From assembly GCF_000012285.1 (NCBI RefSeq), contig NC_007181.1, positions 1,530,001 to 1,562,000 on the forward strand: 32,000 bases of DNA. The letters are read 5' to 3'. The position numbers were made by a program, and so were the translations under genes. This DNA comes from Sulfolobus acidocaldarius DSM 639 (GTDB lineage Archaea > Thermoproteota > Thermoprotei_A > Sulfolobales > Sulfolobaceae). Within the stretch, counting starts at the first letter, position 1, and every line of letters begins with the position of its first letter. This document shows positions 2,091-32,000 of the stretch, in pieces. The notes below the pieces were generated by a model, which was not told the origin of the DNA, ran no database searches, and worked only from the letters and a program-made list of their open reading frames with translations.

Positions 2091-2099
2091 TATATGTCC

Positions 2100-4021: not shown

Positions 4022-5308
4022 TTAAAAAATCTCGTAAAACACTCTTTCTGAAGATATCAGGTATAAAAAGATGGATATGGGCATTATTACCTTGTTGTCT
4101 TTCATCCCTATTTCATCGAGACTTAATATGTACCCCTCACTTAACCTTAAGTCGTTATAGTTTGCACTCCCATACTTCACCTCCACTCCCACATTTCTTA
4201 CCACAAAGTCAACTTCCTTACCGCTCTTAGTGAAAGTATATCCAACTTCACGTCCGTACTCTCTAGCCAAATGTTCACCTACTATTCCCTCAACGACTCT
4301 GGGCAACTCCTCCCTACTGATATCACCGATTCCTCTGGTATACATTTTCATAACCCTGTATATAAAGGGGTCAATAAAGTAAACCTTCTTAAAGGATTTA
4401 TTGTTAAAGTGTCCGTTCTCGATTTTCCTGAACACTCTGAAAGTGAATAAATTTTCACCCAGCTCAAGGTAGCTCTTAACCGTATTGTGTGAACCTATTG
4501 AGGTCTTTTTTGCTATGGTGTTTTCGGAGATTCTGCTACCAAGAGAGTCAATTATCTCCCCTATAATATCAATAAATATTCTCTCGTCCCTGCCTAATTT
4601 CGCTAAATCGCTTAATGTTGCATCCTTATAGACACTATATAACTCTAATGGGTTATCGATTAAGTTTGTGGCTAGAAAGCCTCCTCTTTCAACGTATCTT
4701 AATAACGCAGTATTTAACTCCTGTAAGTATGGTAATAAGTCTTTAGCCTTCTCATAACTTTCCTTAAGGTTGAACAGGTTTATCCTGTCTACGTTGATCT
4801 TATTTTGGAAGAATACGTTGAAATAAGTCCTAAAGTCAAGTGGGTAAAAGACTAATTTCTTTAGTGGTCTTCCTGGTAGTGTCTCCTTCATTAAGTACAT
4901 TGACGTAGATCCAGTAACGTAAACTATTGAGTCTCTAAAGTATCCAGCATTAAATAAGTGTAGAAGCCCAACATTCCAGTCCTTTACAAAGGTTATCTCG
5001 TCAAGGAAGATGTAACCATTGTTGGGATTAATTAAATTCCTGTACTCATGTATTAGCTCTATTAGGTCTTCCATGTCCCTCATAGAATCGCATGAGAAGA
5101 AAAGGGCTTTTTTAGGATTAGCCTCGCTCTCTAGAACCTCCATTATGGTAGTCTTCAGAAAGGTCGTCTTGCCTACCTGCCTGGGACCCAGTAACAGAAT
5201 GTTCTCTCGGATGGGAGGTATTCTATAAGGGGAATTAGCTACCTTTCTCACTGTTTCGTCCTCATAAATTTTGCTCTTATCACTCCACCAAGGGTTTTGA
5301 AAGACCAT
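4022..5308 (-). CDS. AAA ATPase (AAA_14/DUF4143-type 'archaeal ATPase') with a C-terminal PD-(D/E)xK nuclease-like motif
   Basis: Walker A is LLLGPRQVGKTT and Walker B is GYIFLDEITF. The C-terminal GKEVDFVVRNVGVEVKYG (nt 4175-4216) gives a D...ExK signature. The track ORF starts at GTG 5326. The ATG at 5308 (MVFQNPWW...) is the more likely start. Confidence 0.8.
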   Translation of the reverse strand: MVFQNPWWSDKSKIYEDETVRKVANSPYRIPPIRENILLLGPRQVGKTTFLKTTIMEVLESEANPKKALFFSCDSMRDMEDLIELIHEYRNLINPNNGYIFLDEITFVKDWNVGLLHLFNAGYFRDSIVYVTGSTSMYLMKETLPGRPLKKLVFYPLDFRTYFNVFFQNKINVDRINLFNLKESYEKAKDLLPYLQELNTALLRYVERGGFLATNLIDNPLELYSVYKDATLSDLAKLGRDERIFIDIIGEIIDSLGSRISENTIAKKTSIGSHNTVKSYLELGENLFTFRVFRKIENGHFNNKSFKKVYFIDPFIYRVMKMYTRGIGDISREELPRVVEGIVGEHLAREYGREVGYTFTKSGKEVDFVVRNVGVEVKYGSANYNDLRLSEGYILSLDEIGMKDNKVIMPISIFLYLISSERVFYEIF

Positions 5309-5339
5309 TCGTGATATGAGTGACACATTGTTAATGTAT

Positions 5340-5412
5340 TGACAAGTTTAATATAAACTTTGTCATTGGTTGACAACTTTAAGGTAAAACTTGTCATAAG
5401 AGTGACAAGTTT
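5340..5412. repeat. Array of five TGACAAGTTT-type 10-mers in alternating orientation (iterons/operators) upstream of the ATPase gene
   Basis: TGACAAGTTT 5340-5349 (+). AAACTTTGTCA 5355-5365 (inverted, 1-nt insertion). TGACAACTTT 5371-5380 (+, 1 mismatch). AAACTTGTCA 5387-5396 (exact inverted copy). TGACAAGTTT 5403-5412 (+, exact). A degenerate TGACACATT lies at 5321-5329. Confidence 0.7.
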
Positions 5413-5610
5413 AGGAAATCTAATCAGTTTATATAAACCATCTTACTAACGCATTACTCCATGTCTGAAGAAAGGAGTTAATGATCTCCCCAAGACCAGT
5501 AGTTCTTGTTTTGATCATTTAGATAAAAAGTTCCTGCTCTACGAATCTGTGGACCCATGTTAATCCTCAAAACTCCTCCTGATTGGGGTCATTGTAACAG
5601 TAGTTTGATA

Positions 5611-5640
5611 TATACGACAATTTTACGTATAACAATTTTA
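5611..5640. promoter_or_regulatory. Palindromic operator-like site upstream of the aromatic-CoA ligase promoter
   Basis: TATACGacaattttaCGTATA (5611-5631) is an inverted repeat. ACAATTTTA is directly repeated at 5616-5624 and 5632-5640. The site shares TATACGnnnATTTTACG with 2965-2981. Confidence 0.4.
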
Positions 5641-5690
5641 GAATAAAATACTTAAATACTGAATTATAAAAAATATATTTAGGAAATAGC

Positions 5691-7271
5691 ATGAGCAGTA
5701 AGTATGGGGACATTTTAAATGTAACAGATGCTATTTTCTCGAAAAGGAGTAATGAGCTAGGGAGACCTGCTATATACTACAAAGACGAGATATGGACCTA
5801 TAGGAGGTTGATAGACGAAATAAATAGAGTAGGTAATGCATTGAAGAAGTTCTTAGAGAGAGAACAGAGACTCCTCATGATTTCTTATGACTCGCCATAC
5901 TTCATATCAGTGTTTTATGGCGCAATGAAAATAGGAGCCTTCCCAATTCCAGTTAATACATTTACAATACCCGATGACCACATATTCTACTTGGAGGACA
6001 GTAAAGCTAAAGTCCTAGTCGTAGAGCCTGAAATTTGGGACAGGCTAGCCAGTAAATTAAACGGTAGAACTGAGGAGTTGAAGTATGTCATGATATTGCC
6101 CGGAGGACATAGGGAACAGTTACATATTTCCCCTCACCCAGCTAAGGTTATGCTGTATGAGGATATAGTCCCCCACGAATCCACTGACTTAAATCCAGCA
6201 AAGACGTCCCCTGACGAACCTGCATTTGGACTATACACTTCAGGGAGCACAGGGCATCCCAAGTGTGCTGTCCATCTCCACAAGGACATAATAGTTGTTT
6301 TAAATACATACGTTAAGAACGTTCTGAAAATTAATGAAAATGATAAGCTCTTTAGCGCGTCAAAGCTCTTCTTCGCATATGGGCTAGGTAACTCCTCTTA
6401 TTTTGCCTTCGGAAATGGTGCATCAGTGGTCTTAATGCCTGAGAGAGTAGAACCAAAGAGAGTCCTTCATTATATCCAGACATATAAACCCACAATATTC
6501 TTCGCAGTTCCGACAATTTACAACTCTCTACTTAACGTGGAGGAGTGGAAAAAATATGATTTAAGCTCAATAAGGCTTTGCGTATCAGCAGGAGAGCCAT
6601 TACCTGGAAAAATTTATGAAGAGTGGAAGAAGAGGTATGTTGTTGAGATCTTAGACGGAATAGGTTCAACGGAAGCTCTTCACATATACATATCGAACTT
6701 TCCTGGAGAATCAAGACCTAACTGCACGGGAAAAGTAGTCCCTGGCTATGAGGTTAAAATAGTTGACGAAAATGGTAACCAGGTTAAGGCTGGGGAAATA
6801 GGTGACTTGTATGTGAAAGGTGACAGTGTAGCCATGTATTATTTACACAAGTATGAGGACACCAGAAAAAACATGCAAGGTTATTGGTTTAGAAGTGGAG
6901 ACAAATTTTACTTTGACGATAATGGATATTTGTACTATATCGGGAGGTCTGACGACATGATCAAAGCAGGGGGTATGTGGATTTCCCCCATTGAGGTGGA
7001 GTCAGTTATACTCACCCATGAAGCAGTGCTAGAGGCAGCAGTTGTGGGAATAAAGGATGAGGTGGGATTGACTAAGGTGGTCGCTTTTGTTGTACCTAAG
7101 CAGGGATATGAGGCTAATGAAAAATTAGAGGAGGGAATAAAGGAGTATTTGAAGGGCAAACTTCCTTCGTATAAAATACCAAAACAGATTAGGTTTGTTA
7201 ATGAATTACCTAAGACAGCTACAGGAAAGATTCAACGTTATAAGTTCAGAACCGGTGAAGTGAAATCTTAA
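5691..7271 (+). CDS. Aromatic-acid--CoA ligase (benzoate / 4-hydroxybenzoate-CoA ligase family, ANL superfamily)
   Basis: 526 aa. The AMP-binding motif is YTSGSTGHPKCAVHLH. The block EILDGIGSTEALHIYISN closely resembles the DGIGSTEMLHIFLSN block characteristic of the benzoate/4-HBA-CoA ligase clade. The C-terminal PKTATGKIQRYK is also present. A TATA-like TTATAAAAAA lies at 5664-5673. Confidence 0.85.
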   Translation: MSSKYGDILNVTDAIFSKRSNELGRPAIYYKDEIWTYRRLIDEINRVGNALKKFLEREQRLLMISYDSPYFISVFYGAMKIGAFPIPVNTFTIPDDHIFYLEDSKAKVLVVEPEIWDRLASKLNGRTEELKYVMILPGGHREQLHISPHPAKVMLYEDIVPHESTDLNPAKTSPDEPAFGLYTSGSTGHPKCAVHLHKDIIVVLNTYVKNVLKINENDKLFSASKLFFAYGLGNSSYFAFGNGASVVLMPERVEPKRVLHYIQTYKPTIFFAVPTIYNSLLNVEEWKKYDLSSIRLCVSAGEPLPGKIYEEWKKRYVVEILDGIGSTEALHIYISNFPGESRPNCTGKVVPGYEVKIVDENGNQVKAGEIGDLYVKGDSVAMYYLHKYEDTRKNMQGYWFRSGDKFYFDDNGYLYYIGRSDDMIKAGGMWISPIEVESVILTHEAVLEAAVVGIKDEVGLTKVVAFVVPKQGYEANEKLEEGIKEYLKGKLPSYKIPKQIRFVNELPKTATGKIQRYKFRTGEVKS

Positions 7272-7525
7272 GTATTATTGTCCAACCACTAGGAGATGTA
7301 TGTTAACATGTTGTTACTGAATATTATGACTAAAAATTTAAATTTTTACTTATCTTTGTGAAGAATGTGATATTATGAAGGTTTCAAATATTTCTGACGT
7401 ATTTATATTCACACATAATTTTACACAAGATTGTGTATTATGTCGTCTTTCTAAATCAAAAATAAAAAGTATGACATTCGAGGGAGAGATATCTAAATTA
7501 ATTTCTGTTGCATTAAGTGAGTAAT

Positions 7526-8314
7526 ATGAAGTTTCAAACGCTGTTCTTCACGATTTATGGAGACTACATTATAAACTACGGAAATAGCATAACTGTGAGG
7601 AGTTTGATAAAGATAATGAGAGAGTTCGGTTTCACAGAGGGGGCAATAAGGGCAGGTCTATTCCGTTTAAGGCAAAAGGGACTGGTGGACATGATTGACA
7701 GGAGGAGGTGTAGTTTATCCGAAGCTGGGTTATATAGGTTACAGGAAGGTATGAAAAGAGTCTACGAGAAGAGGAACGGAGAGTGGGACGGAAAATGGAG
7801 AATAGTAGTTTACAATATACCTGAGTCAAATAGGAGTGTCAGAGACGAGATGAGAAAAACCTTAAAGTGGTTGGGCTTTGGATACCTGGCTCAATCGACA
7901 TGGATATCGCCAAACCCAGTTGAGGAGAGCCTAACTAAATTCATTAATGAATTAAAAGATAGTAGAACCAATGTTGACATATTCTTCTTTATTTCGGACT
8001 TTGTTGGAAATCCCCTTGAGATAGTAAGGAAGTGTTGGGATCTGAAAGAGGTCGAGGAGAAATATAAGGAGTTTGTGAACCAATGGGGCAAAGTTATGGA
8101 GAACATATCTTCTCTGAAACCAAATGAGGCATTCATAACCAGAATTAGATTGGTTCATGAATACAGGAAATTTTTACACATTGATCCAAACTTACCTAAA
8201 GATCTACTACCGCCAAATTGGGTAGGTTACGAGGCATATGAGCTATTTCAAAAACTGAGGAATAAGCTCTCAACATTGTCTGACCAGTTCTTTAAGTCGG
8301 TATATGAACCTTGA
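7526..8314 (+). CDS. paaX: PaaX-family transcriptional regulator
   Basis: LFFTIYGDY, the wHTH-like region LIKIMREFGFTEGAIRAGLFRLRQKGL, and WDGKWRIVVYNIPE...LKWLGFGYLAQSTWISP all parallel E. coli PaaX (SLYGDS..., ...WDGKWLLLL...LIWQGFGALAPSLMASP). The track ORF begins at GTG 7517. The ATG at 7526 is the likely start. Confidence 0.85.
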   Translation: MKFQTLFFTIYGDYIINYGNSITVRSLIKIMREFGFTEGAIRAGLFRLRQKGLVDMIDRRRCSLSEAGLYRLQEGMKRVYEKRNGEWDGKWRIVVYNIPESNRSVRDEMRKTLKWLGFGYLAQSTWISPNPVEESLTKFINELKDSRTNVDIFFFISDFVGNPLEIVRKCWDLKEVEEKYKEFVNQWGKVMENISSLKPNEAFITRIRLVHEYRKFLHIDPNLPKDLLPPNWVGYEAYELFQKLRNKLSTLSDQFFKSVYEP

Positions 8315-8533
8315 ACGATTAAATCACGGATTTTTGTTATCGAGTCTTCTTCTATTATCACAAAGAATAAGCATTATCCCCTTAAATTAAGTTAACAGTG
8401 CCTAAAACCACGGAGTTTTTGAGACCCTTAATTTAAGTTAAAGTATACACACTCAGTTATATTCTCTTCAAGTAATCAAAAAAACTAGAGCGAGATTTCA
8501 GGTAAATTAAGATCTAAGTGAAAAAAGATTAAT

Positions 8534-8887
8534 TTACTTGTTTGAGGTGGAGGGTTTTTTAATTATTAAATTCACTATTAACGCTGTCAGTAACGATATT
8601 ATGCCATAGATCAATGGGTAAAGCAATACCACTACAACCCCATTCAATCCTAAAATTCCACCAACTTTATCTGCCAATTGAAGAACGTTCCCTAGGGGAT
8701 ATAAAAGGTAAAGCGAAAGTGAGGCTATAAACCCTACTAGGAACCCTGAGATAGCTGAGTATTTTCTACTCAGTAATCCCAAAGGAATACCAACTAGTAT
8801 GGCAGTAAATGGGTAAAGTACAAACAGTTCAAAGATGTAAGCTAGAATAATGGACACAACTATGTAAATTATTGATCTAGTCTTCAT
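8534..8887 (-). CDS. Small integral membrane protein (about 4 TM), translationally coupled to the acylase gene
   Basis: 117 aa, almost entirely hydrophobic helices. Its ATG (8887-8885) sits 1 nt after the acylase TGA (8891-8889), reading TGAAATG on the minus strand. Confidence 0.6.
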   Translation of the reverse strand: MKTRSIIYIVVSIILAYIFELFVLYPFTAILVGIPLGLLSRKYSAISGFLVGFIASLSLYLLYPLGNVLQLADKVGGILGLNGVVVVLLYPLIYGIISLLTALIVNLIIKKPSTSNK

Positions 8888-8888
8888 T

Positions 8889-11342
8889 TCAATCAGCCTC
8901 CAATGTTATGTTAGCGATAGTAGTGTAACCATACCCGGAGTATGATACATACCTAAAGTTTAGCCAAAGTGGTAGTTGGTTTTGGCTGTACTGATTGAAT
9001 ATTCCCTCTGATGGTCCTCCTGGGAATATCCCGTAGAACAGTGAGGAGTTAATGCATGCGACAAATCTAAGTGAGGACCCTACAGTAACATATGGTAGTG
9101 GAACAGTCGGTACGTATGGGGTTGAACCCACTGCCAAAGTGTGAGGGTCTCCAAATATGGGTATTGGACCTATGGATAACTGACTTAACTGTAATGGATC
9201 ATAGATCTCAAGGAAGTGTACTTTACCCCAGTTCCAGCCACTTACATTAGTTCCTAACTCTTGTTGGAGCAGTGAGATAGCTTTGGCAAAGGCATTTTGA
9301 ACAAGGCTATTGAAATTACCGTTAACCCATATTGATGTAGGATCATTTAGAGCAATATAGATAAGGTCAGGGACAACATAAGGTATACCGGAGATGCCTA
9401 TAATTCCTAGACCATAGTTGTCAAGTATCCTAGCCATACTCATGTTTACCATTTCTGCCACTATATACGTATATATTGTGGGTGCGACCTCTCCCTGGTA
9501 GAATGTATAGTTCCATGATTTAAGGTATTGTACTGCTTGAGCCTCAATTGTCGTATTCCCGTTACCTATGGCTTTAAGTAGAAGAGGTGTGAGCTGAGAA
9601 GCCCAATAATCCGTCACATTTGACTGTAATGACATCATATCGCTCACGTCCACAGACTTCTGGTACTTAAGATAATGATATATGTCCTCTGCTCTTCCTC
9701 CAGAACTCCAATAACCACCTATAAATGGATAAGGATAATTTATCCAGGCAGTTGGCTGATTTGGAGCGAAGGCATAACCTCTTGACGGGTCAAACACTTG
9801 GGGTAAGTACTTGAACGGAACATAACCTACTGGTTCAAACTTACTGGTGGTACCGTTTAGGGGTGTTCTTGCACCAATGACTAAGACGGTCTTCCCGTTG
9901 GGTAAGGTCTCGTTTATAAGGGGATAAGAGCCAGCCACAATGTAGCCCGCATGGTTTCTGCTTATCATTGCTATGTTCTGCGGTGGTATTACCCAGTACT
10001 TAGCAGCATTTATTAAGTCGTTGAAGGAAGTGGAGTTGTCTAGCAGAAGTATTGCAATAACAGTAAGTATTGGTTCTTTCATAGCAGTCCAATAAAGGCT
10101 TATCCCGTAATTTCCTTCTCTTGCAACTAATGGTCCGTTATTAGTGTAATAAACGGTATAGGTCTTTCCCATAAGTGTGTAGTTATATTCCTGCATCGGA
10201 TACCATTTACCGTCAAAGTAATAGTAAGTCCCATTAACCCTTTCCACATAGGCATTAGACGAGCTCCCCTCTGGAGTTGTCAACCCCCACACAGTGTAAG
10301 GTGTATGCCCTATAAGTACTCCAGGGATTCCAACTAGTCCCCAACCTGTAACATTAAATCCTCCCCCAACTAGTTGTAAGGGTATCCACACTGAAGGGTA
10401 AAGTAATGGTAAATGTGGATCATTGGCTAATATAGGTCCTTGAGATGAGAAGTTAGATGTAATTACCCATGAGTTGCTTGCCAGAATAGGTGCAGTGAAA
10501 TCAACGTAAGGGTCTGAGATGTTTAGTAGAGCATATTTCATTAAGGGCACTAGACTTATCAGCTGTTGTTTAGTTAAGCCTGTTGCCCATGACTGATACC
10601 AGTCCAGTGACCATAGATATGACGGAGATATCCCCTGACTTGTGAGATTGTAACCGTTAACAGTCCCATCACCAGGCATCACTGTGAGATTACCATCAAT
10701 GAAGTGCGGATAGTAAGGATTTATCTCGTTGACCTCTGAGAAGTTGAAATATGCGTAGAGGAGGGCAGATGCTAGTTCGTCCGAAAAACCTGAGGTTAAA
10801 CTCCATGCCATGTATTCTCCGAACGCCAGCGAATATATCGGTGCCCAGTTATACGGCTTAACCCCTAAAAACTTAAACTCGAGTGGTAAATTCCTGTAAC
10901 TCAGAGTGCTAATGTAATCATTGACCCCCTCAGAGAAGTCTACGAGGTAAGAGTAAACGGTAGGATAATTTTCCCTTATATAGTTGGTGCTCATATTAGC
11001 GTTCTGAGGTATACCAATTAAGTGCATGGCAATGTCTGAGCTCAGTCCCCTACTACCTACCCATGAGCTCAGGTTTCCCATGGCAAGTAGACCGAAAAAC
11101 TCCATCTGAAAGAGTCTCTGGCTCGCCTCGTAATAACCCTCTGCCAGGAGAAGGTCATGAAGGTTATCAGCGTAAATGTGGGCAATACCATTGTTGTCCA
11201 CATATATATTAACGTTACCCTGAAGCCCATTAATATGGGTTACGTAAGTTAATTCCTTAGTGTTTCCTGTTGTAACCCAGACTCCTAAGTAAGGGTTCAA
11301 AATCGCAAGGGGTAGAGTGAACAGAGATACTAGTATTAACAC
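8889..11342 (-). CDS. Penicillin acylase / penicillin amidase family Ntn hydrolase (PF01804-like), secreted and sequon-rich
   Basis: 817 aa. The Ntn nucleophile context is ILASNSWVITS (the SNxW motif at the start of the beta chain in this family), and the length and architecture fit the family. It has an N-terminal hydrophobic anchor and many N-x-S/T sequons. The GTG start at 11342 is uncertain. The frame stays open upstream to 11390 (CKISIRNYVFAGILVV...) with no ATG. Confidence 0.85.
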   Translation of the reverse strand: MLILVSLFTLPLAILNPYLGVWVTTGNTKELTYVTHINGLQGNVNIYVDNNGIAHIYADNLHDLLLAEGYYEASQRLFQMEFFGLLAMGNLSSWVGSRGLSSDIAMHLIGIPQNANMSTNYIRENYPTVYSYLVDFSEGVNDYISTLSYRNLPLEFKFLGVKPYNWAPIYSLAFGEYMAWSLTSGFSDELASALLYAYFNFSEVNEINPYYPHFIDGNLTVMPGDGTVNGYNLTSQGISPSYLWSLDWYQSWATGLTKQQLISLVPLMKYALLNISDPYVDFTAPILASNSWVITSNFSSQGPILANDPHLPLLYPSVWIPLQLVGGGFNVTGWGLVGIPGVLIGHTPYTVWGLTTPEGSSSNAYVERVNGTYYYFDGKWYPMQEYNYTLMGKTYTVYYTNNGPLVAREGNYGISLYWTAMKEPILTVIAILLLDNSTSFNDLINAAKYWVIPPQNIAMISRNHAGYIVAGSYPLINETLPNGKTVLVIGARTPLNGTTSKFEPVGYVPFKYLPQVFDPSRGYAFAPNQPTAWINYPYPFIGGYWSSGGRAEDIYHYLKYQKSVDVSDMMSLQSNVTDYWASQLTPLLLKAIGNGNTTIEAQAVQYLKSWNYTFYQGEVAPTIYTYIVAEMVNMSMARILDNYGLGIIGISGIPYVVPDLIYIALNDPTSIWVNGNFNSLVQNAFAKAISLLQQELGTNVSGWNWGKVHFLEIYDPLQLSQLSIGPIPIFGDPHTLAVGSTPYVPTVPLPYVTVGSSLRFVACINSSLFYGIFPGGPSEGIFNQYSQNQLPLWLNFRYVSYSGYGYTTIANITLEAD

Positions 11343-11397
11343 AACTACTAAAATGCCTGCAAATACGTAATTCCTAATACTAATTTTACATCACCTC

Positions 11398-11607
11398 CTA
11401 AAACTGTCCAGTGGGTGTTGAAGTTCTGATATGGTTAAGGAGAGTATTTATCGCGTATTTATCTCCTAGTTGCACAATCGTCGAGGGAGATAATTTAGAA
11501 TGGTGGTCTGTCCCACATACGCTCCCTGTTGATCCCAAGATTGTTGTATCTTTTTCAACGTCTCGGTTTCTTAAGGACAAACTCAGAAGTGGTTTGTTTT
11601 TCTTCAT
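11398..11607 (-). CDS. Hypothetical small protein (weak call)
   Basis: 69 aa, ATG start, with an A/T-rich box about 25 nt upstream on the minus strand. It ends just before the acylase gene. I see no recognisable motif, and an equally long ORF lies on the opposite strand. Confidence 0.3.
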   Translation of the reverse strand: MKKNKPLLSLSLRNRDVEKDTTILGSTGSVCGTDHHSKLSPSTIVQLGDKYAINTLLNHIRTSTPTGQF

Positions 11608-11805
11608 AATGATCTAATTTATAGATATATTTAACTAATTAAATATCTGCAGCTAATAACTGACTTTTCACTTCTTGTTAACTAGACAAATTGGGATTAA
11701 AAATTTTAATTATCTTTACATAAGGAAACTTGAAGACAATCTTGAATTTATAAAATAAATTTCAAATATAGGAAAATTTAATATTCAAAAAGTACATTAT
11801 GTATA

Positions 11806-13482
11806 ATGATGTCTGAGGACTCATGGAAAAACGTTTATTCATACCTCTCTAACTCTTACGGCAAAAACCACTTCACTATTGATAAACCATTTCAACAACT
11901 TTTGAAGTACTTTAGAGGGGCTGTCCCCGATCTGACACCATTAGGTGAATTTGCTGGAGGGGAGTTACTGGAAATTTCAGATTATATAGATAAAGGGGCT
12001 CACCCTAAACACATCATGTGGAGTATAGACGGACAAAGAGTTGATGAGGTCTGGATTTCACCTATGCAAAGGTTAGTTCTAGAGAGATTGTTAAAAGAGT
12101 ACCACGTTAATGCCTATCCGTATAAGGGAGGGGATTGGTTCCAGCACTTTGCATCAATATACCTAATCTCAGATCCCGGAATAGCGTGTATCCTGACTGT
12201 GACAAATCAAACAGCTTATACCCTATACAAGTACGGAGACGCTTATCAGAGAACACTTGTAGACGGAATGATCGGTGAAAACGATAAGATACTCTTTGGT
12301 GCAACATGGTTTACAGAAGTTCAGGGAGGAAGTGATTTAGGTGCTAACCTCGTTGAGGCTTATAAAGATGGGAATACTTGGAAATTAAACGGAATCACCA
12401 AGTATTTCGCCAGTGATGCAGGGTTAGCTCATTACGCTTTAGTTACAGCCAGACCTAAGGGAGCTCCATCAGGAGCAAAAGGGTTAGGTCTCTTCTTAGC
12501 CCCTAAATTAGATTCCTCAGGGAGAAGGAACTTTTTGATCAGGAGATTAAAGGAAAAAAGTGCTACTATCAGTGTTCCTACTGGAGAGGTAGAGTTTCAT
12601 GGTTCTGAAGCCCAACCTATAGGAGAGTTAAATCAGGGAATATACTACACAGTCGAGACCTTAACTGTGTCCAGAATAGCTAATGCATTTGGAGCTCTGG
12701 GATTAGCCAGGAAAGCGTATCTTGAGGCTTACTACTACGCACAAAAGAGGAAAGCATTTGGAAAACCCTTAATTGAACATCCGTTAGTACGTAGAGACCT
12801 ATTAGATATGGAAGTTTACATTGAGGGTACTATGGCACTTGCTCTGAAGTCAGTTAGTGAATTTCAGAAGTCGTGGATGTCGACTCCACCCTATAATGAA
12901 AATTACAATTACGCCAGGTTGTTGACTCACATAGCCAAGAATATGACTGCTGATATGTCAGCTTACGTCACCAAAATGGCTATGGAGCTTCATGGCGGTA
13001 TAGGGTTTCTGAGGGAGTTTCCCATAGAACGACTTCATAGGGAGGCTCTGATTACACCCATATGGGAGGGACCAAGTAATATTCAAGCTTTAGACATGCT
13101 TGAAGCATTGGTTAAAAAGAAAGCTCATTTGACACTTATAAAGGATATGGAGAATTTAGTAAATCAGTTGAAGGAGGATAGAGACCTTGGTGATCTAGCA
13201 TTAAGGAGTATTAATGAGTCCCTTTCAGGGATTTTGGGCATGCAGATTCAGGACGCCCAGTATTATGCGAAAGACCTACTGAATACCCTAGGTAATGCGG
13301 TTGCAACTGTTCTACTCCTTCATGCGGGGGAGAGTTTAGGATCCAGTAGGTTAAGGACAGTTGGCAAACTCTACGCTACGCGGTTCTTGGAGGGAAAAGT
13401 GTACCCGATTGAGGATCTCAGAGGTGGAGATGTAGTATTTATGATAGACGAAGTAGAGTTGAAGGCTGAGACAAATGGGTAA
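11806..13482 (+). CDS. Acyl-CoA dehydrogenase, long AidB-like form
   Basis: 558 aa. ACAD blocks are FGATWFTEVQGGSDLG, WKLNGITKYFASDAG, AFGKPLIEHPLVRRDL and HGGIGFLREFPIERLHREALITPIWEGPSNIQ. N- and C-terminal extensions match the ~550-aa AidB-type subgroup. A TATA-like box lies at 11774-11787. Confidence 0.85.
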   Translation: MMSEDSWKNVYSYLSNSYGKNHFTIDKPFQQLLKYFRGAVPDLTPLGEFAGGELLEISDYIDKGAHPKHIMWSIDGQRVDEVWISPMQRLVLERLLKEYHVNAYPYKGGDWFQHFASIYLISDPGIACILTVTNQTAYTLYKYGDAYQRTLVDGMIGENDKILFGATWFTEVQGGSDLGANLVEAYKDGNTWKLNGITKYFASDAGLAHYALVTARPKGAPSGAKGLGLFLAPKLDSSGRRNFLIRRLKEKSATISVPTGEVEFHGSEAQPIGELNQGIYYTVETLTVSRIANAFGALGLARKAYLEAYYYAQKRKAFGKPLIEHPLVRRDLLDMEVYIEGTMALALKSVSEFQKSWMSTPPYNENYNYARLLTHIAKNMTADMSAYVTKMAMELHGGIGFLREFPIERLHREALITPIWEGPSNIQALDMLEALVKKKAHLTLIKDMENLVNQLKEDRDLGDLALRSINESLSGILGMQIQDAQYYAKDLLNTLGNAVATVLLLHAGESLGSSRLRTVGKLYATRFLEGKVYPIEDLRGGDVVFMIDEVELKAETNG

Positions 13483-15016
13483 TTATTTCACTGTTTTTGA
13501 ACTCTTGAAAAGAGCGAAAGATCTGACACCTAATGTCGAGATCGTGTATGGTGACAATATATATACGTACAAGGAAGTTTATGAGAGGGTAGTGAAGCTT
13601 GCTAATTCTCTCCATAATCTTGGCATAAAGAAGGGGACAACAATAGGTGTTGCAGACTGGAACACCAACAGATTTGTGGAGTTACTCTATGCTTCAGCTC
13701 TGTTAGGCTGTGTAATTTACCCAGTTAACATTAGACTACCTCCTGAGCAAATAATCTGGACAATTAAATTCGCCAACGTGGAATGGTTGTTCATAAGCCG
13801 TGACTTTGAGGCGTTATCTAAGGTGTTTGATTCCTCTAAAGTTGTTTATCTAGATGGTAATAACGGTCAAATAAGTTATGAAGACCTCATTTCTAAGGGT
13901 GCTATGGAAAAGGTAAATTATGATGTTAAGGGAGGAGACCCTTACTCCATTCTGTTTACCTCAGGTACTACAGGTAAGCCGAAGGCTGTGATGTATACAC
14001 ACGAGAAGGTAATTCATGGTGCATTAAGTATAGTCCATCAGCTTGGTCTTTACAACTCTCCTGCAAAACTCTCCTCTAATGACGTCATAATGCCATTTAT
14101 CCCATTCTATCACTTGTGGTCGTGGGGTTCTGCATTTATAGCCTCTTACCTTGGAGCTAAATACGTCTTGACCGGTAAGTTTGACCCAAAAACCGCTATA
14201 CAACTAATCAAAAGGGAAAATGCTACGTGGATAAATGCAGTCCCCACAATGATACAGATGATATTATCTTCAGGAGAACAGTTGCCTGGAGTTAAAGCGC
14301 TTATAGGTGGACAGGCTATTCCCTATAATGTTGCTAAATCCATATCCGATGCAGGGTTAAAGTTCTCAACGATCTACGGAGGCACTGATATGTTGGCAAT
14401 ATCCATTTCAATTATACCAGGTAAGTTCCAAGTCAATGATGATATAGATTATTTACGCACAACTACCCATCCAGTCCCCTTTGTTGAGGTAAAGGTTATT
14501 AAACCAGATGGGACTGAGGCTAGTTACAACGAGATTGGTGAGTTATATGTTAGGGCTCCCTGGTTACCAGGTTCATACTACAATAATCCCGAAGAGACTC
14601 AGAGAGCGTATGACGAGAATGGCTGGTTCAAAACAGGTGATTTAGCAATAATAACAGAGGAAGGGGGTCTAAGGATAGTCGACAGATTAAAGGACGTGAT
14701 AAAGAGCGGTGGTGAGTGGATCCCCAGTAGCGTATTGGAGTCCATCATTTCGGAGATCCCTGCAGTCGAACAGGTTGCAGTATTAGGATATCCAGACCAG
14801 AAATGGGGAGAAAGACCTATGGCAGTAGTGAAACTGAAGCCAGGTCAAAGGACTGATCAAAAAGAGATTTTAGAATATCTTAGAGATGCAGTGAATAAGG
14901 GCAGGATAAATAAGTGGTGGCTACCTGATAAGATAGTGTTTGTTGATAATATGCCATTGACTAGCACAGGAAAGATAAATAAACTCGCCTTAAGGAAGGA
15001 TGTGGGAATAGGTTAA
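13475..15016 (+). CDS. Acyl-CoA synthetase (AMP-forming, medium/long-chain fatty-acid--CoA ligase type)
   Basis: 513 aa. Motifs are FTSGTTGKPKAVMYTH, YGGTDM, WFKTGDLA and TSTGKINK. The start overlaps the ACAD stop by 8 nt (ATGGGTAA). Confidence 0.9.
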   Translation: MGNYFTVFELLKRAKDLTPNVEIVYGDNIYTYKEVYERVVKLANSLHNLGIKKGTTIGVADWNTNRFVELLYASALLGCVIYPVNIRLPPEQIIWTIKFANVEWLFISRDFEALSKVFDSSKVVYLDGNNGQISYEDLISKGAMEKVNYDVKGGDPYSILFTSGTTGKPKAVMYTHEKVIHGALSIVHQLGLYNSPAKLSSNDVIMPFIPFYHLWSWGSAFIASYLGAKYVLTGKFDPKTAIQLIKRENATWINAVPTMIQMILSSGEQLPGVKALIGGQAIPYNVAKSISDAGLKFSTIYGGTDMLAISISIIPGKFQVNDDIDYLRTTTHPVPFVEVKVIKPDGTEASYNEIGELYVRAPWLPGSYYNNPEETQRAYDENGWFKTGDLAIITEEGGLRIVDRLKDVIKSGGEWIPSSVLESIISEIPAVEQVAVLGYPDQKWGERPMAVVKLKPGQRTDQKEILEYLRDAVNKGRINKWWLPDKIVFVDNMPLTSTGKINKLALRKDVGIG

Positions 15017-23563: not shown

Positions 23564-25882
23564 ATGCCCGACACAAAAACAATAGGTTTCGTAATAGTTG
23601 CTATTATATTATTAGTTATAGCAGCAGTAGGTTTTTATGAGTACAGTGTTGTAAGTTCAAACTACACATCTCTACAAAATTCCTATACATCACTAAGTTC
23701 TACCTTATCTCAAGCTCAAGCTAACGCCAGTTACTTTATGAAGTTAGCGGAAGAAAACTATACCAACTATCAAAAGTTACTGTCAAACTATACCACCTTG
23801 GAAAACATGTATTCTGCTTTGTTGAAACAAAAAGTGTCGGCACAATATGCTGAGGGTAGCGCACTTGCCAACGTCTTTAAAGTGTGGGACGGTATAGCGA
23901 TAGAATCTCCAGGAGACGTAACTCCTTATCTAGCCTCAAACTTCACTGCGACAATCTCTGGTGTACCATTCCCTGGTACATATAATTTACAGACGTTCAA
24001 CTCCTCATGGCTCTCTAAATTCTTCTCTGACTACGAGACAGTGTATTTCTACACTACCGAACTACCCAAAGTAACTCAAATGAGTAATACATCATACCAA
24101 ATATCTGCAGTAGTTCAATACTTTGTAGCTCCCACACAGGATCCCATATACCTTCAAGTTTTTAATGCATCAGTAACCTTAATGGTCCAAGTAATAAATG
24201 GAGTGCCTGAGATAACTTCAATGAATTGGGTGGGTAATGAGGTCTCCCCATCGGCTGTAATCTCTGGGTATCCATCACAGCATTTAATGCAGGCAAATCA
24301 AGTTGCCTATGAGGTTCTGTCGGAAGTTAATGGACTAGGTGCAGAGTTTGCCCCTAATGTAATTGCTCAGTACTTCAGTCCCAATGCTGTACTAAACATT
24401 TCTGGAGTACTTCCTCAAGGTTTATCAAACGGGACTTACAACGGTTTAACAAATATACAGAATTTCTTCAATAATTGGGATAAATATTTCATATTTGCTG
24501 TAGAGTATTCACAAAACCTATTACCAAATGGTACTGCTGTACCTCCATCAATCAAAGTAACATTACTTCCAAACGAGTCCATGGCAGTAGTTACGGCTAA
24601 TGTGACACCAATAATTGGTTTTGTAAACCAAGGTGAGCCAACATTTCCTGGTATATACGACTTACATATATCGTTAACAGCCTACTTGATGTATAACTCA
24701 ACTGCTGGAATGTGGCAAATTGTTAAAGAGAACTGGAATGTAGATTCAATTCCATCGATAGAAGACACGTTGTTCTACAACATAAATCAGCCCATATTTA
24801 AGGTGATAAAGGAAAGTACAATCACTGTAAACGCATCTACAGGTGGAATAGTCCAGGCAGGTAATATCGTCTCAATAGTACAACCAGGTACCTATGCTGA
24901 GTTGCCTAATGGTTCATTATTATCAGTTTATAATTTCTCGTTGGTACTATTCAGTGTTCAGGGAGTTTATCCACCTCCATTAGCATTCTTTAACTATACA
25001 CCCTCATACGCTTTCGCATTTGCTTTAAACGGCAAGATATCTCCAGCTTATTCCTTCGTGAATTCATCAAAGGTGTCTAAACCAATAATAACAATTGTAT
25101 ATGGATCAAATACTTGGACAAGCTGGACTTGGCTTGGAGGAAGCTTCAATGGTACAGCTTACGTAGGTGGAAGCTATAAGTTCCCAGACAAGTGGATTTA
25201 CGGAAATAATGTAATGGTAAACACCCAGTTCTTTAAACCTGTACTCTGGATATTCGAAACAGGTCAAACACCCTTAGCTACTCCACCAAGTCCCTCTAAT
25301 GTTTCAGTTACTAAAGCCTTTGGTTTAACACCCATAAACGCATATTCATATCAGGTTAACGGAATGGAAGGAGGAGTTATAACAGCAGGGAATATAATGG
25401 TAGTCATAAAACCTGGCACTATAATTCACACTCCCACAGCAAACTTAACTAATTACAACTTCTCAGTAGTGTTCTACTCAACAAATGGTTTACCAAACTC
25501 TCCATCTGGAGAAGTACCATTTATAGCTTTTGCATACGCCATAAACGGTAATGTTACATTTAGCTATAGTGCCTCACAGAGTTTCATTACAATAGTATCA
25601 ACACCTGATAATAACGGACAAATGTGGACATGGGGTCCACCAGGATATATTCTTAAAGACCCTATAATACTTGGTAACGGTGTAATGGTGAATTTAACGT
25701 TCTTTAAGCCGGTACCATGGATAATTACACTCCCCACATTAACCAGTAGTGCAAGTACAACCAGCTCCTCGACGAGCTCTATGTCAACTTCCAGTAGTAC
25801 TACAGCTTCAAGCACGACATCAACCACTTCAAGTACTACAACAACGACCTCCACATCCTCTACTTATCCATATTGGGGATAA
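23564..25882 (+). CDS. Large N-terminally anchored, heavily sequon-decorated surface glycoprotein with internal duplications and a Ser/Thr-rich C-terminal tail
   Basis: 772 aa. The N-terminal TM segment is IGFVIVAIILLVIAAVGFY. A heptad-like NYT-rich segment follows. There are two related ~120-aa modules, then two related ~135-aa modules. The tail is about 40 aa of almost pure Ser/Thr. I counted more than 20 N-x-S/T sequons by hand. Confidence 0.7.
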   Translation: MPDTKTIGFVIVAIILLVIAAVGFYEYSVVSSNYTSLQNSYTSLSSTLSQAQANASYFMKLAEENYTNYQKLLSNYTTLENMYSALLKQKVSAQYAEGSALANVFKVWDGIAIESPGDVTPYLASNFTATISGVPFPGTYNLQTFNSSWLSKFFSDYETVYFYTTELPKVTQMSNTSYQISAVVQYFVAPTQDPIYLQVFNASVTLMVQVINGVPEITSMNWVGNEVSPSAVISGYPSQHLMQANQVAYEVLSEVNGLGAEFAPNVIAQYFSPNAVLNISGVLPQGLSNGTYNGLTNIQNFFNNWDKYFIFAVEYSQNLLPNGTAVPPSIKVTLLPNESMAVVTANVTPIIGFVNQGEPTFPGIYDLHISLTAYLMYNSTAGMWQIVKENWNVDSIPSIEDTLFYNINQPIFKVIKESTITVNASTGGIVQAGNIVSIVQPGTYAELPNGSLLSVYNFSLVLFSVQGVYPPPLAFFNYTPSYAFAFALNGKISPAYSFVNSSKVSKPIITIVYGSNTWTSWTWLGGSFNGTAYVGGSYKFPDKWIYGNNVMVNTQFFKPVLWIFETGQTPLATPPSPSNVSVTKAFGLTPINAYSYQVNGMEGGVITAGNIMVVIKPGTIIHTPTANLTNYNFSVVFYSTNGLPNSPSGEVPFIAFAYAINGNVTFSYSASQSFITIVSTPDNNGQMWTWGPPGYILKDPIILGNGVMVNLTFFKPVPWIITLPTLTSSASTTSSSTSSMSTSSSTTASSTTSTTSSTTTTTSTSSTYPYWG
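24812..25732 (+). repeat. Intragenic tandem duplication of a ~135-aa module
   Basis: Copy 1 covers residues ~417-565 (nt 24812-25258): TVNASTGGIVQAGNIVSIVQPGT...YNFSLVLFS...YAFAFALNGKISPAYSF...ITIVYGSNTWTSWTW...GNNVMVNTQFFKPVLWIFE. Copy 2 covers residues ~594-723 (nt 25343-25732): QVNGMEGGVITAGNIMVVIKPGT...YNFSVVFYS...IAFAYAINGNVTFSYS...ITIVSTPDNNGQMWTW...GNGVMVNLTFFKPVPWIITL. Confidence 0.75.
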
Positions 25883-27435: not shown

Positions 27436-27846
27436 TCAGATTTTGAAATCTTTTATGTGTTTAGCCCATTGCAAACTTCTAACCTTCCTCAACAGCTTCT
27501 CATCCGCAGTATAAACCTCTTCACCAAGAGTTTTTCCTAGGGTTATATAGGCAGAGTCATAAATTGTTATACCGTACTTCATGGAGAAGGTTATAATTTC
27601 CTCTGTATCGAAAAAGCTGTAATAGGTTATTTGAAAATCATCTAAAATCTTTGAAATTATGACCAGTTCTTCTTCTCCTAAATTATACGTATATTTCAGC
27701 CCGTTAATTACTTCAAAGGGTAAAATACAAGGCGCTTTAAGGTCTACTAGACCTTCAGAGTATGCTCTCTTAAGCCTGTTTGCGTCATCGCTATACTCCT
27801 CTTTAGTATACCATTTTATGACAACGGAAGCGTCTACAACTGCCAA
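27436..27846 (-). CDS. vapC: PIN-domain toxin VapC
   Basis: 136 aa. The N-terminal AVVDASVVIKW supplies the first acidic residue of the PIN fold. Later acidic residues are in ITIYDSAYITL and VYTADEKLL. The start appears to be TTG (27846-27844) and overlaps the vapB 3' end by 13 nt. Confidence 0.85.
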   Translation of the reverse strand: MAVVDASVVIKWYTKEEYSDDANRLKRAYSEGLVDLKAPCILPFEVINGLKYTYNLGEEELVIISKILDDFQITYYSFFDTEEIITFSMKYGITIYDSAYITLGKTLGEEVYTADEKLLRKVRSLQWAKHIKDFKI

Positions 27847-28103
27847 TTCTTATCTCTCCATTCCCTTATTTTTTCTTCAGACTTCTCGCCACCTAAATAT
27901 GCGTAAAATTCCTCTGCTTTAACAGAAGCCCTTTTTATTCTATCATTGTCTTTTTTCTTAAAATTCTCTTTTCTTTTTTTGTTCTCCTCCTCAATTACAC
28001 TGATTATACTTCTCCTTATAACTTCACTCCAATTTATATAGCTCAATTGGTCCATTTTCTCTTTTAGTTCATCGTCAATTCTGACTGTTATTACAGGCAT
28101 CAT
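27834..28103 (-). CDS. vapB: Ribbon-helix-helix (CopG-like) antitoxin VapB
   Basis: 89 aa. MMPVITVRIDDELKEKMDQL is a typical RHH N-terminal strand plus helix. The C-terminal half is Lys/Glu-rich. A TATA-like box lies at 28121-30 on the minus strand. Confidence 0.8.
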   Translation of the reverse strand: MMPVITVRIDDELKEKMDQLSYINWSEVIRRSIISVIEEENKKRKENFKKKDNDRIKRASVKAEEFYAYLGGEKSEEKIREWRDKNWQL

Positions 28104-29673: not shown

Positions 29674-29943
29674 TTATCCCTTAAGTTTACGTTCTATTGT
29701 TAAATAGTTCTCTATCATCTCAAGCTCTCTTTTACCACTATCTGTAAGTGAGTATCCTTCCTTGTTTACCCTAACTAAACCCAGTTTCTCGATACGGGAT
29801 ATGTATTTGGAGAACACATCATAGTTTAATCCCACTAAATACATCAAATGAGTCTTCTTCACTTCAGTTTCACTTTCCCTGAGTACTTTAAGTATTGTAT
29901 ACATTATCTCGATTTTGCTCCTATGCTTGGGCATTTCACTCAT
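29674..29943 (-). CDS. Small winged-helix DNA-binding protein (HTH_45-like)
   Basis: 89 aa. The pattern KIEIMYTILKVL...THLMYLVGLNYDVFSKYISRIEKLGLVRVNKEGYSLTDSGKRELE is a typical small archaeal wHTH layout. It is divergent from the secreted-protein gene. Confidence 0.65.
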   Translation of the reverse strand: MSEMPKHRSKIEIMYTILKVLRESETEVKKTHLMYLVGLNYDVFSKYISRIEKLGLVRVNKEGYSLTDSGKRELEMIENYLTIERKLKG

Positions 29944-30497
29944 CGGTGGTATTATGATTTTGATAAATTAAGTTTTTCGTGTAACTTTTATAAATAACAC
30001 TTATAATTGAGGCAAATACTCTACTCTTAAAACTGAAATGAACCTTTTCTCAAGAGGATAAATTCTCTAAATTCATAAATAATTTTTCCCATCTTTCAAT
30101 GTCTAATAGGAATTTCTAAATATTTCATCTGAGACTACCTAACATCATAATCTGATTTTATATACCTCTCTGGAATCAGACTCTCTCGTCTTAGTAAGTT
30201 AAAATATTGTTATAAAATATGGAGCTAGTCACTCTCATTCCTAAAAATACCTAAAAAGGTTTAGCTTAACAGAGGTTGATTAATCATTTGTACCTAATGT
30301 TCACACAGTTACTCTTTCACAACAATACTAAGGGTAATGTCATAATATCTATTATCCTATATATTTCTGCTTGTACAAAGGTATATTTTAGTTTAGATAT
30401 AGTAATATATTTAGTATCAGCTAAAAATATATGATATTTCAATTTTTTATCCTTGTCTATTTAAATATGTAAAAAACAATAATAGGTTTGAACACAA

Positions 30498-31211
30498 ATG
30501 AATCTAAACATTAAAACCGTAGCAATGATATCCGTAGCAGCTCTACTATTATCAATGCTAGTATACCAAGCTTTTGTAGCAGGATTCGTAGTGAGCAATT
30601 CCGTGACAGGTAGTGTAGTTAGGATAAACTCAGAGAACGCTCTTCTTCAGATAGATCCATTAGAATTTTCCTTAATCTCTAACAATGGTGGATTATCAAT
30701 ACAATTACCAGCCATAGGTCCAGGTACAGCTGACTATGCAGCTTTCCTTTATGACTCACATTCCAATGTTGTAGCTAGCTATTCAGCAGCATATCTATTT
30801 GCAATAGTTGAGGTAGAGTTTAACTACCCAGGTAATAATAATCAAGTGATCAATGTAGCAGCGTCCTTAGAACATGTGACTAATAACACTCCTATCCAGA
30901 TCCTAGTACTAGGAACCCATGGTTCTACAATGGACCCCATAACCTCATTCCCTAACAATTCAATATCTGTTGATCCTACGAACACTCCAGGAACAGTCAT
31001 GATAAATGGTCTTCAATTTACAGTTTTAGGAAGTTATGGTTTACCATCTTCAGTGTCTTCTGCTATAGGTAGTACAACTGCAACAATAGGCTCTGGTAGT
31101 AGTAATGGAGAAGTAGTATACGTGTTAATATTATTACCATCCTACGGAACTGTACCAGCCTCAGGCTCTAGTTTTTCAGCTGCACTAAACTTCTACGGAT
31201 ATCAGAGTTAA
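30498..31211 (+). CDS. Secreted beta-rich protein; candidate TasA/camelysin-like or thread-like filament subunit
   Basis: 237 aa. The N-terminal signal/anchor is MNLNIKTVAMISVAALLLSMLVYQA, followed by FVAGFVVSNSVTGSVV. This loosely resembles the SipW-cognate N-terminus of TasA-family proteins (FAYFSDTETSTGNTF...). The mature part has no Lys and one Arg, and is rich in Ser/Gly/Val/Asn/Thr with alternating beta-strand-like patterns. A signal peptidase gene follows 46 nt downstream. Confidence 0.6.
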   Translation: MNLNIKTVAMISVAALLLSMLVYQAFVAGFVVSNSVTGSVVRINSENALLQIDPLEFSLISNNGGLSIQLPAIGPGTADYAAFLYDSHSNVVASYSAAYLFAIVEVEFNYPGNNNQVINVAASLEHVTNNTPIQILVLGTHGSTMDPITSFPNNSISVDPTNTPGTVMINGLQFTVLGSYGLPSSVSSAIGSTTATIGSGSSNGEVVYVLILLPSYGTVPASGSSFSAALNFYGYQS

Positions 31212-31257
31212 ACAGGTGAATAAGAGGGATGTAAATATAAATTAAAGGGGTTTTTTA

Positions 31258-32000
31258 ATGTCTCCAAATATAATTTTTTCGTTTTATTCATTAAAAGTAT
31301 TAAAGATCATAGGAAAGGTATTCGCTTTAATTGTTCTTATCTTCTCGATATTTCTCACCTTTACCAATTTAATGGGTAGACCGACTTTCGTAGCAATTAC
31401 TTACGGTTACAGCATGTTTCCTTACCTAAAACCTGGAGACGTTGCCATAACAATTCCCGAACCAGTAGCAGGAAAAATAACCAATGGCTCAATAGTCGTA
31501 ATAAAAGACCCAGATTACGGTGTACTACCAGGTTATCCACCGTATATAATACACCAGGTAATTAACGTATTACCAAATGGGTCCTTCGTAACTAAGGGAA
31601 TTAATGATAACTTCGTGGATCAGATCTACATGCCTCCTGTAACAGTTTCCAACATATACGCCAAACTCCTAGTCATAAATAATAATCCTGTGGTAATACC
31701 ATACTTAGGGGAAATACTCAACAGCGCTAGGCTCAACTTAATTCCCTCTGTAGGGATGTTGGCGTTATTGGGAATTTCCTTTGCTGTCTTAGACAGGAGG
31801 AACAATAAAAGTAAAAAGAGGAGAAAAATAAACAACAGTGAATATGTTAACCTGAAAATTGTCGTGTTTTTCTTGTCCATCTTTGTGTTTTCCGTCTTCG
31901 TGATCATGGCTAGCGCACAGACCTCTAACACTACAGTAGTTTACTTGGTGTCCAGAACGCCAGGATATTTATACGGGGGAACACTCCAGTCCTCTTCAGT
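31258..32000 (+). CDS. S26-family (archaeal/eukaryotic Sec11/SipW type) signal peptidase I with extra C-terminal TM segments; 3' end beyond the window
   Basis: This ORF is not in the supplied track because it has no stop inside the window. My hand translation from ATG 31258 is MSPNIIFSFYSLKVLKIIGKVFALIVLIFSIFLTFTNLMGRPTFVAITYGYSMFPYLKPGDVAITIP...YIIHQVINVLPNGSFVTKGINDNFVDQ... The catalytic Ser box YSMFPYLKPGD corresponds to SGSMxPxLxxGD. The His box IIHQV corresponds to IVHRV. TKGINDNFVD corresponds to TKGDNNxxxD. The frame remains open to nt 32000. Confidence 0.75.
   Translation, partial: MSPNIIFSFYSLKVLKIIGKVFALIVLIFSIFLTFTNLMGRPTFVAITYGYSMFPYLKPGDVAITIPEPVAGKITNGSIVVIKDPDYGVLPGYPPYIIHQVINVLPNGSFVTKGINDNFVDQIYMPPVTVSNIYAKLLVINNNPVVIPYLGEILNSARLNLIPSVGMLALLGISFAVLDRRNNKSKKRRKINNSEYVNLKIVVFFLSIFVFSVFVIMASAQTSNTTVVYLVSRTPGYLYGGTLQSSS

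Follow-up and report, generated by a model that had tools for sequence, protein, structure and literature searches.

At the 3′ end of a 32,000-nucleotide stretch of the Sulfolobus acidocaldarius DSM 639 chromosome (NC_007181.1, positions 1,530,001 to 1,562,000; hereafter the window), we found the 5′ half of a four-gene operon with flanking regulators, in which a gene for a small secreted protein is followed by that of a signal peptidase. Positions past the end of the window are given on an identical 299-kb contig (L001); adding 20497 to an L001 position converts it to a window position. The first gene (30498-31211, forward strand), called as an open reading frame, encodes a 237-residue, beta-rich secreted protein, the candidate major subunit of a surface fibre. 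After a gap of 46 nt comes the gene of a 368-residue, TafD-like S26B signal peptidase (forward strand; 31258-32000 in the window, beginning with the ATG at 31258 and covering 247 residues; L001 10761-11867, with its end at window-equivalent position 32364). This gene overlaps by 4 nt (GTGA) with one for a 136-residue protein (L001 11864-12274), and a gap of 26 nt leads on to the gene of a 293-residue membrane protein. Upstream and divergent from the operon is an 89-residue winged helix-turn-helix (wHTH) gene (29674-29943, reverse strand, likewise an open reading frame call), whose product matches HTH_45 in Pfam (PF14947, E 4.5e-17) and the Sso10a model of NCBIfam (NF053610, 64.4 bits against a cutoff of 60). 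The AT-rich intergenic spacer of 554 bp between the two, read from the sequence (29944-30497), gave no match in a search of Rfam and no notable repeats. At 30462-30469, some 30 nt 5′ of the ATG of the 237-residue gene, it carries the TATA-like sequence TTTAAATA, and the usual Sulfolobus spacing from TATA to start suggests that TTTAAATA is a promoter element of this gene. An initial annotation of the window had reported the wHTH gene, the spacer, the 237-residue frame, the 46-nt gap and the S26 frame at 31258, all of which are present at those positions; the third and fourth genes, the latter assigned below to DUF5305, escaped it because they lie beyond the window. Downstream of the operon there is a second, paralogous HTH_45 gene (L001 13388-13708), followed by a gene for a membrane protein of ~170 residues.

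The peptidase is recognized by the archaeal signal peptidase (SPase) I model TIGR02228 (sigpep_I_arch), which matches 11 of the 11 members of its family (best E 1e-14) and the S. acidocaldarius protein itself at 38-40 bits (39.9 bits and E 3.6e-10 for the frame from 31258), below the cutoff of 51.85. Across 11 orthologues, Ser52 in the motif GYSMxP, His99 in YIIHQV and a TKGINDNFVDQ box with Asp121 are invariant. In the window, the codon of the catalytic Ser52 (GYSMFP, forward strand, 31411-31413) aligns with the S26 nucleophile box, and that of the catalytic His99 (same strand, 31552-31554) precedes the box with Asp121, which is of the Sec11/SipW type. Archaeal SPase I is known to work by a Ser/His(/Asp) mechanism, and we classify the enzyme from its sequence as an S26B signal peptidase I of the Sec11/SipW clade. 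Secondary structure from AlphaFold2 (AF2), combined with hydropathy, gives an architecture of four hydrophobic membrane helices and two beta-rich extracellular domains; the AF2 model is of low confidence (predicted local distance difference test, pLDDT, 51), and its top Foldseek match is human SEC11C (E 1.7e-3). Single-sequence and profile searches of 5.8 billion proteins recovered the family as 11 clusters, which come only from Sulfolobus, Saccharolobus and Metallosphaera.

The closest relatives of the peptidase are the TafD enzymes, which process the subunits of the haloarchaeal Tafi fimbriae: deletion of tafD abolishes both TafA processing and fimbriae. BLASTP aligns the peptidase with TafD of Hfx. 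mediterranei at 31% over 144 residues (E 1.5e-13), and hhalign of the Sulfolobales family against five haloarchaeal TafD sequences returns a match of 99.4% probability (E 2e-21; 288 columns, query positions 25-332). The aligned part runs from the catalytic domain across the helix pair and through the second ectodomain, with the helices at matching positions. A tblastn search of plasmids with the peptidase yielded nine matches, all of them haloarchaeal genes labelled 'signal peptidase I'. DUF5305 and Taf-type small secreted proteins, with the N-terminus GAF(S/T)xVxAxR, occur at five of the six haloarchaeal loci that we inspected; one of the small secreted proteins is annotated as DUF1102, and Hfx. 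mediterranei additionally has a LamG protein. The combination of DUF5305, GAF-type secreted proteins, DUF1102 and LamG identifies these loci as taf loci. The initial annotation had proposed a dedicated S26 enzyme beside a secreted beta-rich protein and a wHTH regulator, and this holds: the enzyme is non-generic and tied to the secreted protein and to wHTH regulators in a module shared by Sulfolobus, Saccharolobus and Metallosphaera, with filament-dedicated TafD enzymes as its nearest kin. The second ectodomain (peptidase residues ~221-335; L001 11421-11765, in the window from ~31918) bears six N-glycosylation sequons. Foldseek relates its model to MSP/PapD-like immunoglobulin folds, including those of the chaperone-usher chaperones Caf1M, PapD, FimC and CupB2 (E 0.003-0.03; pLDDT ~50-60), a resemblance between predicted folds that we treat as a lead only.

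The 293-residue product of the fourth gene is, by profile comparison, a DUF5305 protein of the TafG-like type. Its orthologue from Metallosphaera sedula passes the Pfam DUF5305 model (PF17231) with 36.3 bits against a cutoff of 29; the S. acidocaldarius protein by itself has no match to that model, and BLASTP aligns the two end to end (E 3e-33). When the family was compared with haloarchaeal DUF5305 proteins by hhalign, it aligned over 289 columns (E 1.4e-5, 80%). In the 293-residue protein a first helix is followed by an ectodomain that bears 10 N-glycosylation sequons, then by another helix and a cytoplasmic tail of basic character, a layout that agrees with the published one of DUF5305, a putative accessory subunit of SPase I. 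The DUF5305 gene is the member of the operon that marks the system as Tafi-like, and we consider it highly probable that the peptidase and this protein are TafD and TafG homologues which form a dedicated processing module. In Sulfolobus sp. A20 the DUF5305 gene (L016 8487-9349) seems to be frameshifted, being recovered as two tblastn pieces and called with 247 residues, and in strain SUSAZ the fourth gene and the downstream HTH gene are annotated as shorter versions (234 and 64 residues); this may reflect decay of the module in certain strains or simply a difference in annotation.

We examined the surroundings of the operon in seven genomes: S. acidocaldarius, S. islandicus, Sulfolobus sp. A20 and Metallosphaera tengchongensis, M. 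sedula, M. javensis and M. hakonensis. According to tblastn and gene calls, the 237-residue gene, the peptidase, the 293-residue gene, the HTH_45 genes and the small membrane protein occur together in all seven, with the HTH_45 genes flanking the cluster in each and the slot of the 136-residue gene holding an open reading frame of ~135-141 residues. Such co-occurrence in 7/7 genomes shows that the gene adjacency is not due to chance, and the conservation of the gene pair across Sulfolobales, which the initial annotation had named as a check of its proposal, is a syntenic one. In three Metallosphaera species the first gene of the cluster, there encoding a 233-residue homologue, lies slightly upstream and on the other strand. 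The downstream pair of an HTH_45 gene and a gene for a membrane protein (~170-200 residues, its cytoplasmic part helical and further helices at its C-terminus; L001 13388-14280, window-equivalent 33885-34777) accompanies the cluster in seven of the seven genomes, and may represent, split over two genes, a membrane-bound regulator comparable to TafB or ArnR; hhalign of the small membrane protein against TafB gave no similarity. In S. islandicus M.14.25, a 371-residue LamG/ConA-like lectin with a twin-arginine-like signal (KRRDF) is encoded directly upstream of the cluster (L004 3557-4672). We considered it as a TafC homologue and rejected this, since the cleavage motif is absent from it and it has no BLAST similarity to TafC. 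Wider searches for homologues with the peptidase profile and by a contig scan added only one Metallosphaera locus and two bacterial loci. An Actinomycetes metagenome-assembled genome, the locus of which was recovered via the peptidase pattern (L007 7338-9639), has the same triad of a small secreted protein, in which ATAGFAFMAENTV follows the signal, a 192-residue SPase (TIGR02228, 48 bits) and a DUF5305-like protein of 430 residues (E 1e-5).

The 237-residue protein is identical to AAY81100 and 97% identical to SUSAZ_08540. Its relatives number 13 only, all of them from Sulfolobus, Saccharolobus or Metallosphaera; when 1.84 billion representative proteins were searched exhaustively with a profile, no more than three real clusters of the family came up, and the protein matches no Pfam or NCBIfam family. 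We accordingly regard it, as far as sequence searches reach, as an orphan family restricted to Sulfolobales. An N-terminal hydrophobic signal (hydrophobic stretch at residues 3-33) is predicted to end at residue 29, so that the signal peptide would be encoded by 30498-30584 of the forward strand. The mature protein contains no lysine, one arginine and three histidines, giving a lysine plus arginine (K+R) content of 0.5% as against 10-15% in the cytoplasmic neighbors. This scarcity, which the initial annotation had read as suited to an acid-stable extracellular polymer, is real but not specific to a fibre: other probably extracellular proteins of the window are also low in K+R (3-4%), and the property is therefore a mark of exported proteins in an acidophile. 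A Gly/Ser-rich segment that had been noted near the C-terminus is present at residues ~184-205. The AF2 monomer model comprises 13 strands (pLDDT 63.7; predicted TM-score 0.66). In an alignment of 14 homologous sequences, the 25 residues that follow from Phe30 are the best conserved part of the family (FVVSNSVTGSVVRINSENALLQIDP, 30585-30659, forward strand), and the same segment is unstructured in the monomer model, with pLDDT <50. A segment that is invariant and yet unstructured in a modelled monomer has the pattern of a donor strand, which fits but does not prove that it acts as one.

The 136-residue protein also carries an N-terminal signal. In the accession lookup its gene has no number of the AAY series, though AAY81101 (the peptidase) and AAY81102 (the 293-residue protein) are consecutive; it may have been left unannotated in the original DSM 639 record, which could explain its being overlooked in surveys. 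The 136- and 237-residue families share a motif, small-small-Phe-x-[VI]-S-N, directly after the signal helix, with the individual signatures LLVYQAFV[AV]GFVVSN in the 237-residue family and LSS[FW]xP[AG]Fx[VIL]S[NF] in the 136-residue family. By hhalign the two align over residues 1-38 only (E 6.7e-5), with E 0.06-0.5 for controls that included helix-versus-helix comparisons and 0.16 for the mature parts of the two families. A six-frame scan of eight loci (~130 kb) with a regular expression for the motif matched these two secreted families alone. The putative cleavage pattern [AGP][GA]|F is conserved in both and confined to them. An 'SNS' motif in the 293-residue protein was considered as a further instance and rejected, the segment being the first membrane helix of that protein.

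The shared motif bears on where the signal peptide is removed. The site proposed initially, A25|F26 (LVYQA/), has Tyr at -3, and Met at -1 in Metallosphaera. By comparison, G29 and F30 are invariant across 14 homologues of the 237-residue protein, and before the invariant Phe position -3 is always V/M/T/S/L and position -1 always G/A. The mature N-terminus of TafA, as determined by mass spectrometry, is Phe30 following Gly-Ala, and not the site given by SignalP. On account of the -3/-1 pattern, the poor A25|F26 site and the measured TafA cut before Phe, we predict that the 237-residue protein is cleaved at V-A-G29|F30, which conservation among homologues and analogy to TafA make likelier than the site four residues before it.

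From the observed genes, operon structure, synteny, TafD/TafG homology and common N-terminal motif, we posit that the four-gene operon corresponds, in Sulfolobales, to the taf loci known from haloarchaea, Thermococcales and Archaeoglobales and makes a donor-strand surface fibre, a reading to which we assign a probability of roughly 60%. Under this proposal, Sec would export the 237- and 136-residue pre-proteins, and the four-helix S26B peptidase (Ser52/His99), acting with the DUF5305 membrane protein, would cleave both of them after the conserved small-small pair and just before the invariant Phe (G29|F30 in the 237-residue protein). The freed, invariant and beta-prone N-terminus would then serve as a donor strand, through which the 237-residue protein could polymerise to a thin, acid-stable surface fibre, with the 136-residue protein as its putative tip or initiator. 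The two HTH_45 regulators and the conserved small membrane protein would control expression, which is probably off in laboratory conditions. We think it likely that the two secreted proteins are substrates of the processing module and are cut before the conserved Phe, and put polymerisation of the 237-residue protein by strand donation into a fibre at even odds or slightly below. A more elaborate form of the proposal, which we offer tentatively and hold to be somewhat improbable in its entirety, is that the operon specifies a cryptic fifth filament of S. acidocaldarius, Sec-dependent and TafD/TafG-processed, with subunits unrelated in sequence to TafA/E, TasA, AbpA, CanX or the thread, in which the PapD/MSP-like C-terminal ectodomain of the peptidase could serve as an in-built chaperone or platform for assembly and so link cleavage with polymerisation.

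Several results weigh against a fibre-forming role, and most of them favor the main rival, in which the TafD/TafG homologues mature cell-surface or S-layer-associated proteins that do not polymerise, such as adhesins, matrix or envelope proteins. First, the substrates have no detectable homology to known donor-strand subunits: sequence and profile searches of the PDB gave no matching chain for either secreted protein, the thread subunit, AbpA, TasA and the cannula proteins included, and a Pfam search of both for TafA/E (DUF1102) gave nothing at E<=1. Their comparison by hhalign with haloarchaeal Taf pilins and DUF1102 reached E 0.025-0.37, and a hidden Markov model (HMM) of the Taf N-terminal motif scored them like shuffled sequences (n=3,000). 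A likeness seen by eye between INSENALLQI of the mature N-terminus and VGDENAYLGL of DUF1102 was dropped, given the hhalign E of 0.3 and the negative outcome of the shuffle-tested motif HMM. Second, Foldseek with the 237-residue model found no significant match in the PDB (best E 0.027), and pilus and adhesin folds (FimG, MrkD, PapG, TasA and Ena) appear only at E ~0.1, a result non-specific for beta-sandwich folds. The 237-residue protein, moreover, has only two N-glycosylation sequons. Third, an extra filament has never been seen on S. acidocaldarius: cells without archaella, Aap and Ups pili display threads only, and the literature holds that the organism has no TafE, whose homologues are patchy in Sulfolobales according to the 2025 PNAS paper on Tafi. 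In the literature that we searched by locus tag and accession the operon proteins are unmentioned, and we found there no expression or proteomic record of the genes. Nevertheless, the rival has to contend with the fact that the SPase-DUF5305 pair goes with donor-strand fibres in every experimentally studied case (Tafi and AbpX), with an invariant unstructured N-terminal segment that is hard to explain in a monomeric protein, and with the collinearity of the locus with the taf-like cluster of Pyrococcus. We consider it unlikely, while taking it to be the most serious competitor of the donor-strand fibre. The published absence of TafE is compatible with what we infer from the sequences, which is that TafD/TafG machinery is present in S. 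acidocaldarius with other candidate subunits.

A much less probable alternative is that the locus is of the TasA/SipW type, as the initial annotation had it, and possibly supplies the processing machinery that is missing for the Sulfolobus thread. It draws on the S26 peptidase adjoining a secreted beta-rich protein, on the TasA fibre 8aur standing at rank 11 among the Foldseek matches of the 237-residue model (E 0.095, TM 0.29), and on recent literature in which HHpred unites TasA, AbpA, the thread and Tafi as a single superfamily. The family assignment fails at both genes: the Peptidase_M73 (PF12389) and SipW-cognate signal models have no match at E<=1, and the peptidase scores 11.2 bits against a cutoff of 190 with the SipW equivalog model NF046067 (SigPepSipWBacil), from which it differs in its four-helix, two-domain architecture of the TafD type. 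The suggested link to the thread does not survive either, since phmmer and profile searches of PDB chains returned no match to Saci_0406 (7PNB) at E<=10, and the thread gene has a conserved neighborhood of its own (Saci_0404-0409), with assembly machinery unassigned; the thread chain is also absent from the top 50 Foldseek matches of the 237-residue model. The parallel that had been drawn with archaeal TasA-like pili applies to AbpX and Tafi loci and not to the Pyrobaculum archaeal bundling pili (ABP), for which the original paper found no dedicated peptidase gene near the operon. The initial annotation is, in sum, partly supported, having been right on the type of system, a fibre subunit with a dedicated peptidase, and wrong on its family. 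Least probable of all is a housekeeping Sec11-type signal peptidase placed by chance beside unrelated hypothetical genes: it would explain an S26B enzyme with intact catalytic residues, but is rendered very unlikely by the narrow distribution (11 clusters in three genera, where a housekeeping enzyme would be universal in Sulfolobales), the score below the archaeal SPase I equivalog cutoff, the additional extracellular domain and two additional helices, and the strict synteny with DUF5305 and motif-bearing substrates.

Elsewhere in the window, a 772-residue open reading frame (23564-25882, forward strand) with no Pfam match has a K+R content of 3% and a composition like that of exported proteins, and may be another extracellular orphan protein. 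On the reverse strand, overlapping genes for a PIN-domain protein (136 residues) and a ribbon-helix-helix-like protein (89 residues) at 27436-28103 form a VapBC-type toxin-antitoxin module, which sits between a major facilitator superfamily transporter and a short-chain dehydrogenase/reductase gene. The region from 1395 to 15016 contains a phenylacetate/acyl-CoA-type block with two PaaA/PaaC-like proteins, an enoyl-CoA hydratase, a PaaX-like regulator, two AMP-binding ligases and an acyl-CoA dehydrogenase, beside which lies an 817-residue protein of the penicillin-amidase family that is probably exported (K+R 3.8%).

The operon is a real and conserved locus, seemingly undescribed, and represents a Tafi-type variant from the principal model organism of the crenarchaea. 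S. acidocaldarius serves as the genetically tractable model in work on archaeal pili, and is believed to carry exactly four types of filament on its surface. The Tafi processing machinery is conserved in it and coupled to two orphan secreted proteins, despite the statement in the literature that Tafi pilins are absent, and this cautions that presence or absence of such systems should not be scored by pilin homology alone. The locus also bears on the roles of the SPase-DUF5305 pair and of the second ectodomain of the peptidase, on the specificity for subunits that is encoded by the small-small-Phe motif, and on whether donor-strand fibres arise from subunit families that current sequence searches miss.

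Among known systems, the thread (Saci_0406) is the one that shares its organism with the 237-residue protein and is, like it, a Sec-exported, beta-rich and PibD-independent surface protein. It is a donor-strand filament for which no assembly machinery is known; it differs in being encoded at another locus, in having no sequence similarity and in lacking a dedicated peptidase in its neighborhood. The tapA-sipW-tasA operon of Bacillus subtilis likewise places an S26B peptidase beside the subunit that it processes, with donor-strand assembly proposed, but SipW is small and has neither the second domain nor the DUF5305 partner of the S. acidocaldarius enzyme. AbpX loci, which belong to the TasA superfamily, come nearer in having a pair of SPase I and DUF5305 beside fibre subunits, the latter having been proposed as an SPase subunit that is sometimes fused to SPase; the AbpX-associated SPase is described with ten helices as opposed to four here, and AbpX is a member of the TasA family, whereas the 237-residue protein has no match to it.

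Close resemblance is also found to the haloarchaeal Tafi locus, tafA-G of Haloarcula hispanica and Natrinema sp. J7-2, and to the taf-like clusters of Thermococcales and Archaeoglobales. Both the Tafi locus and the operon described here encode a four-helix, two-domain S26 peptidase and a DUF5305 protein (the TafD and TafG homologues), several small, secreted, beta-rich subunits that are cut before a Phe (predicted in our case), and a regulator of their own. They differ in that the Tafi subunits TafA/E are DUF1102 proteins, to which the S. acidocaldarius secreted proteins have no detectable relation, and in that Tafi export proceeds by Tat, whereas the S. acidocaldarius proteins have Sec-type signals. 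The S. acidocaldarius locus is also without a LamG tip protein (TafC) or a TafF-like anchor, and its regulators are HTH_45 proteins with a separate membrane protein in place of the membrane-bound HTH protein TafB. The Tafi fimbriae have been observed, whereas the S. acidocaldarius filament is a predicted one. The Tafi paper further describes Sec-dependent taf-like clusters in Thermococcales and Archaeoglobales, which use Sec/SPase I signals as here, with DUF1102 subunits where S. acidocaldarius has an orphan family. The cluster of Pyrococcus horikoshii begins with DUF1102 subunits (PH0565/64) and continues with the peptidase (PH0563), a Sec/SPase I protein of ~130 residues modelled as the tip (PH0562) and DUF5305 (PH0561), and by the published description of that cluster the S. 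acidocaldarius operon is collinear with PH0565-PH0561.

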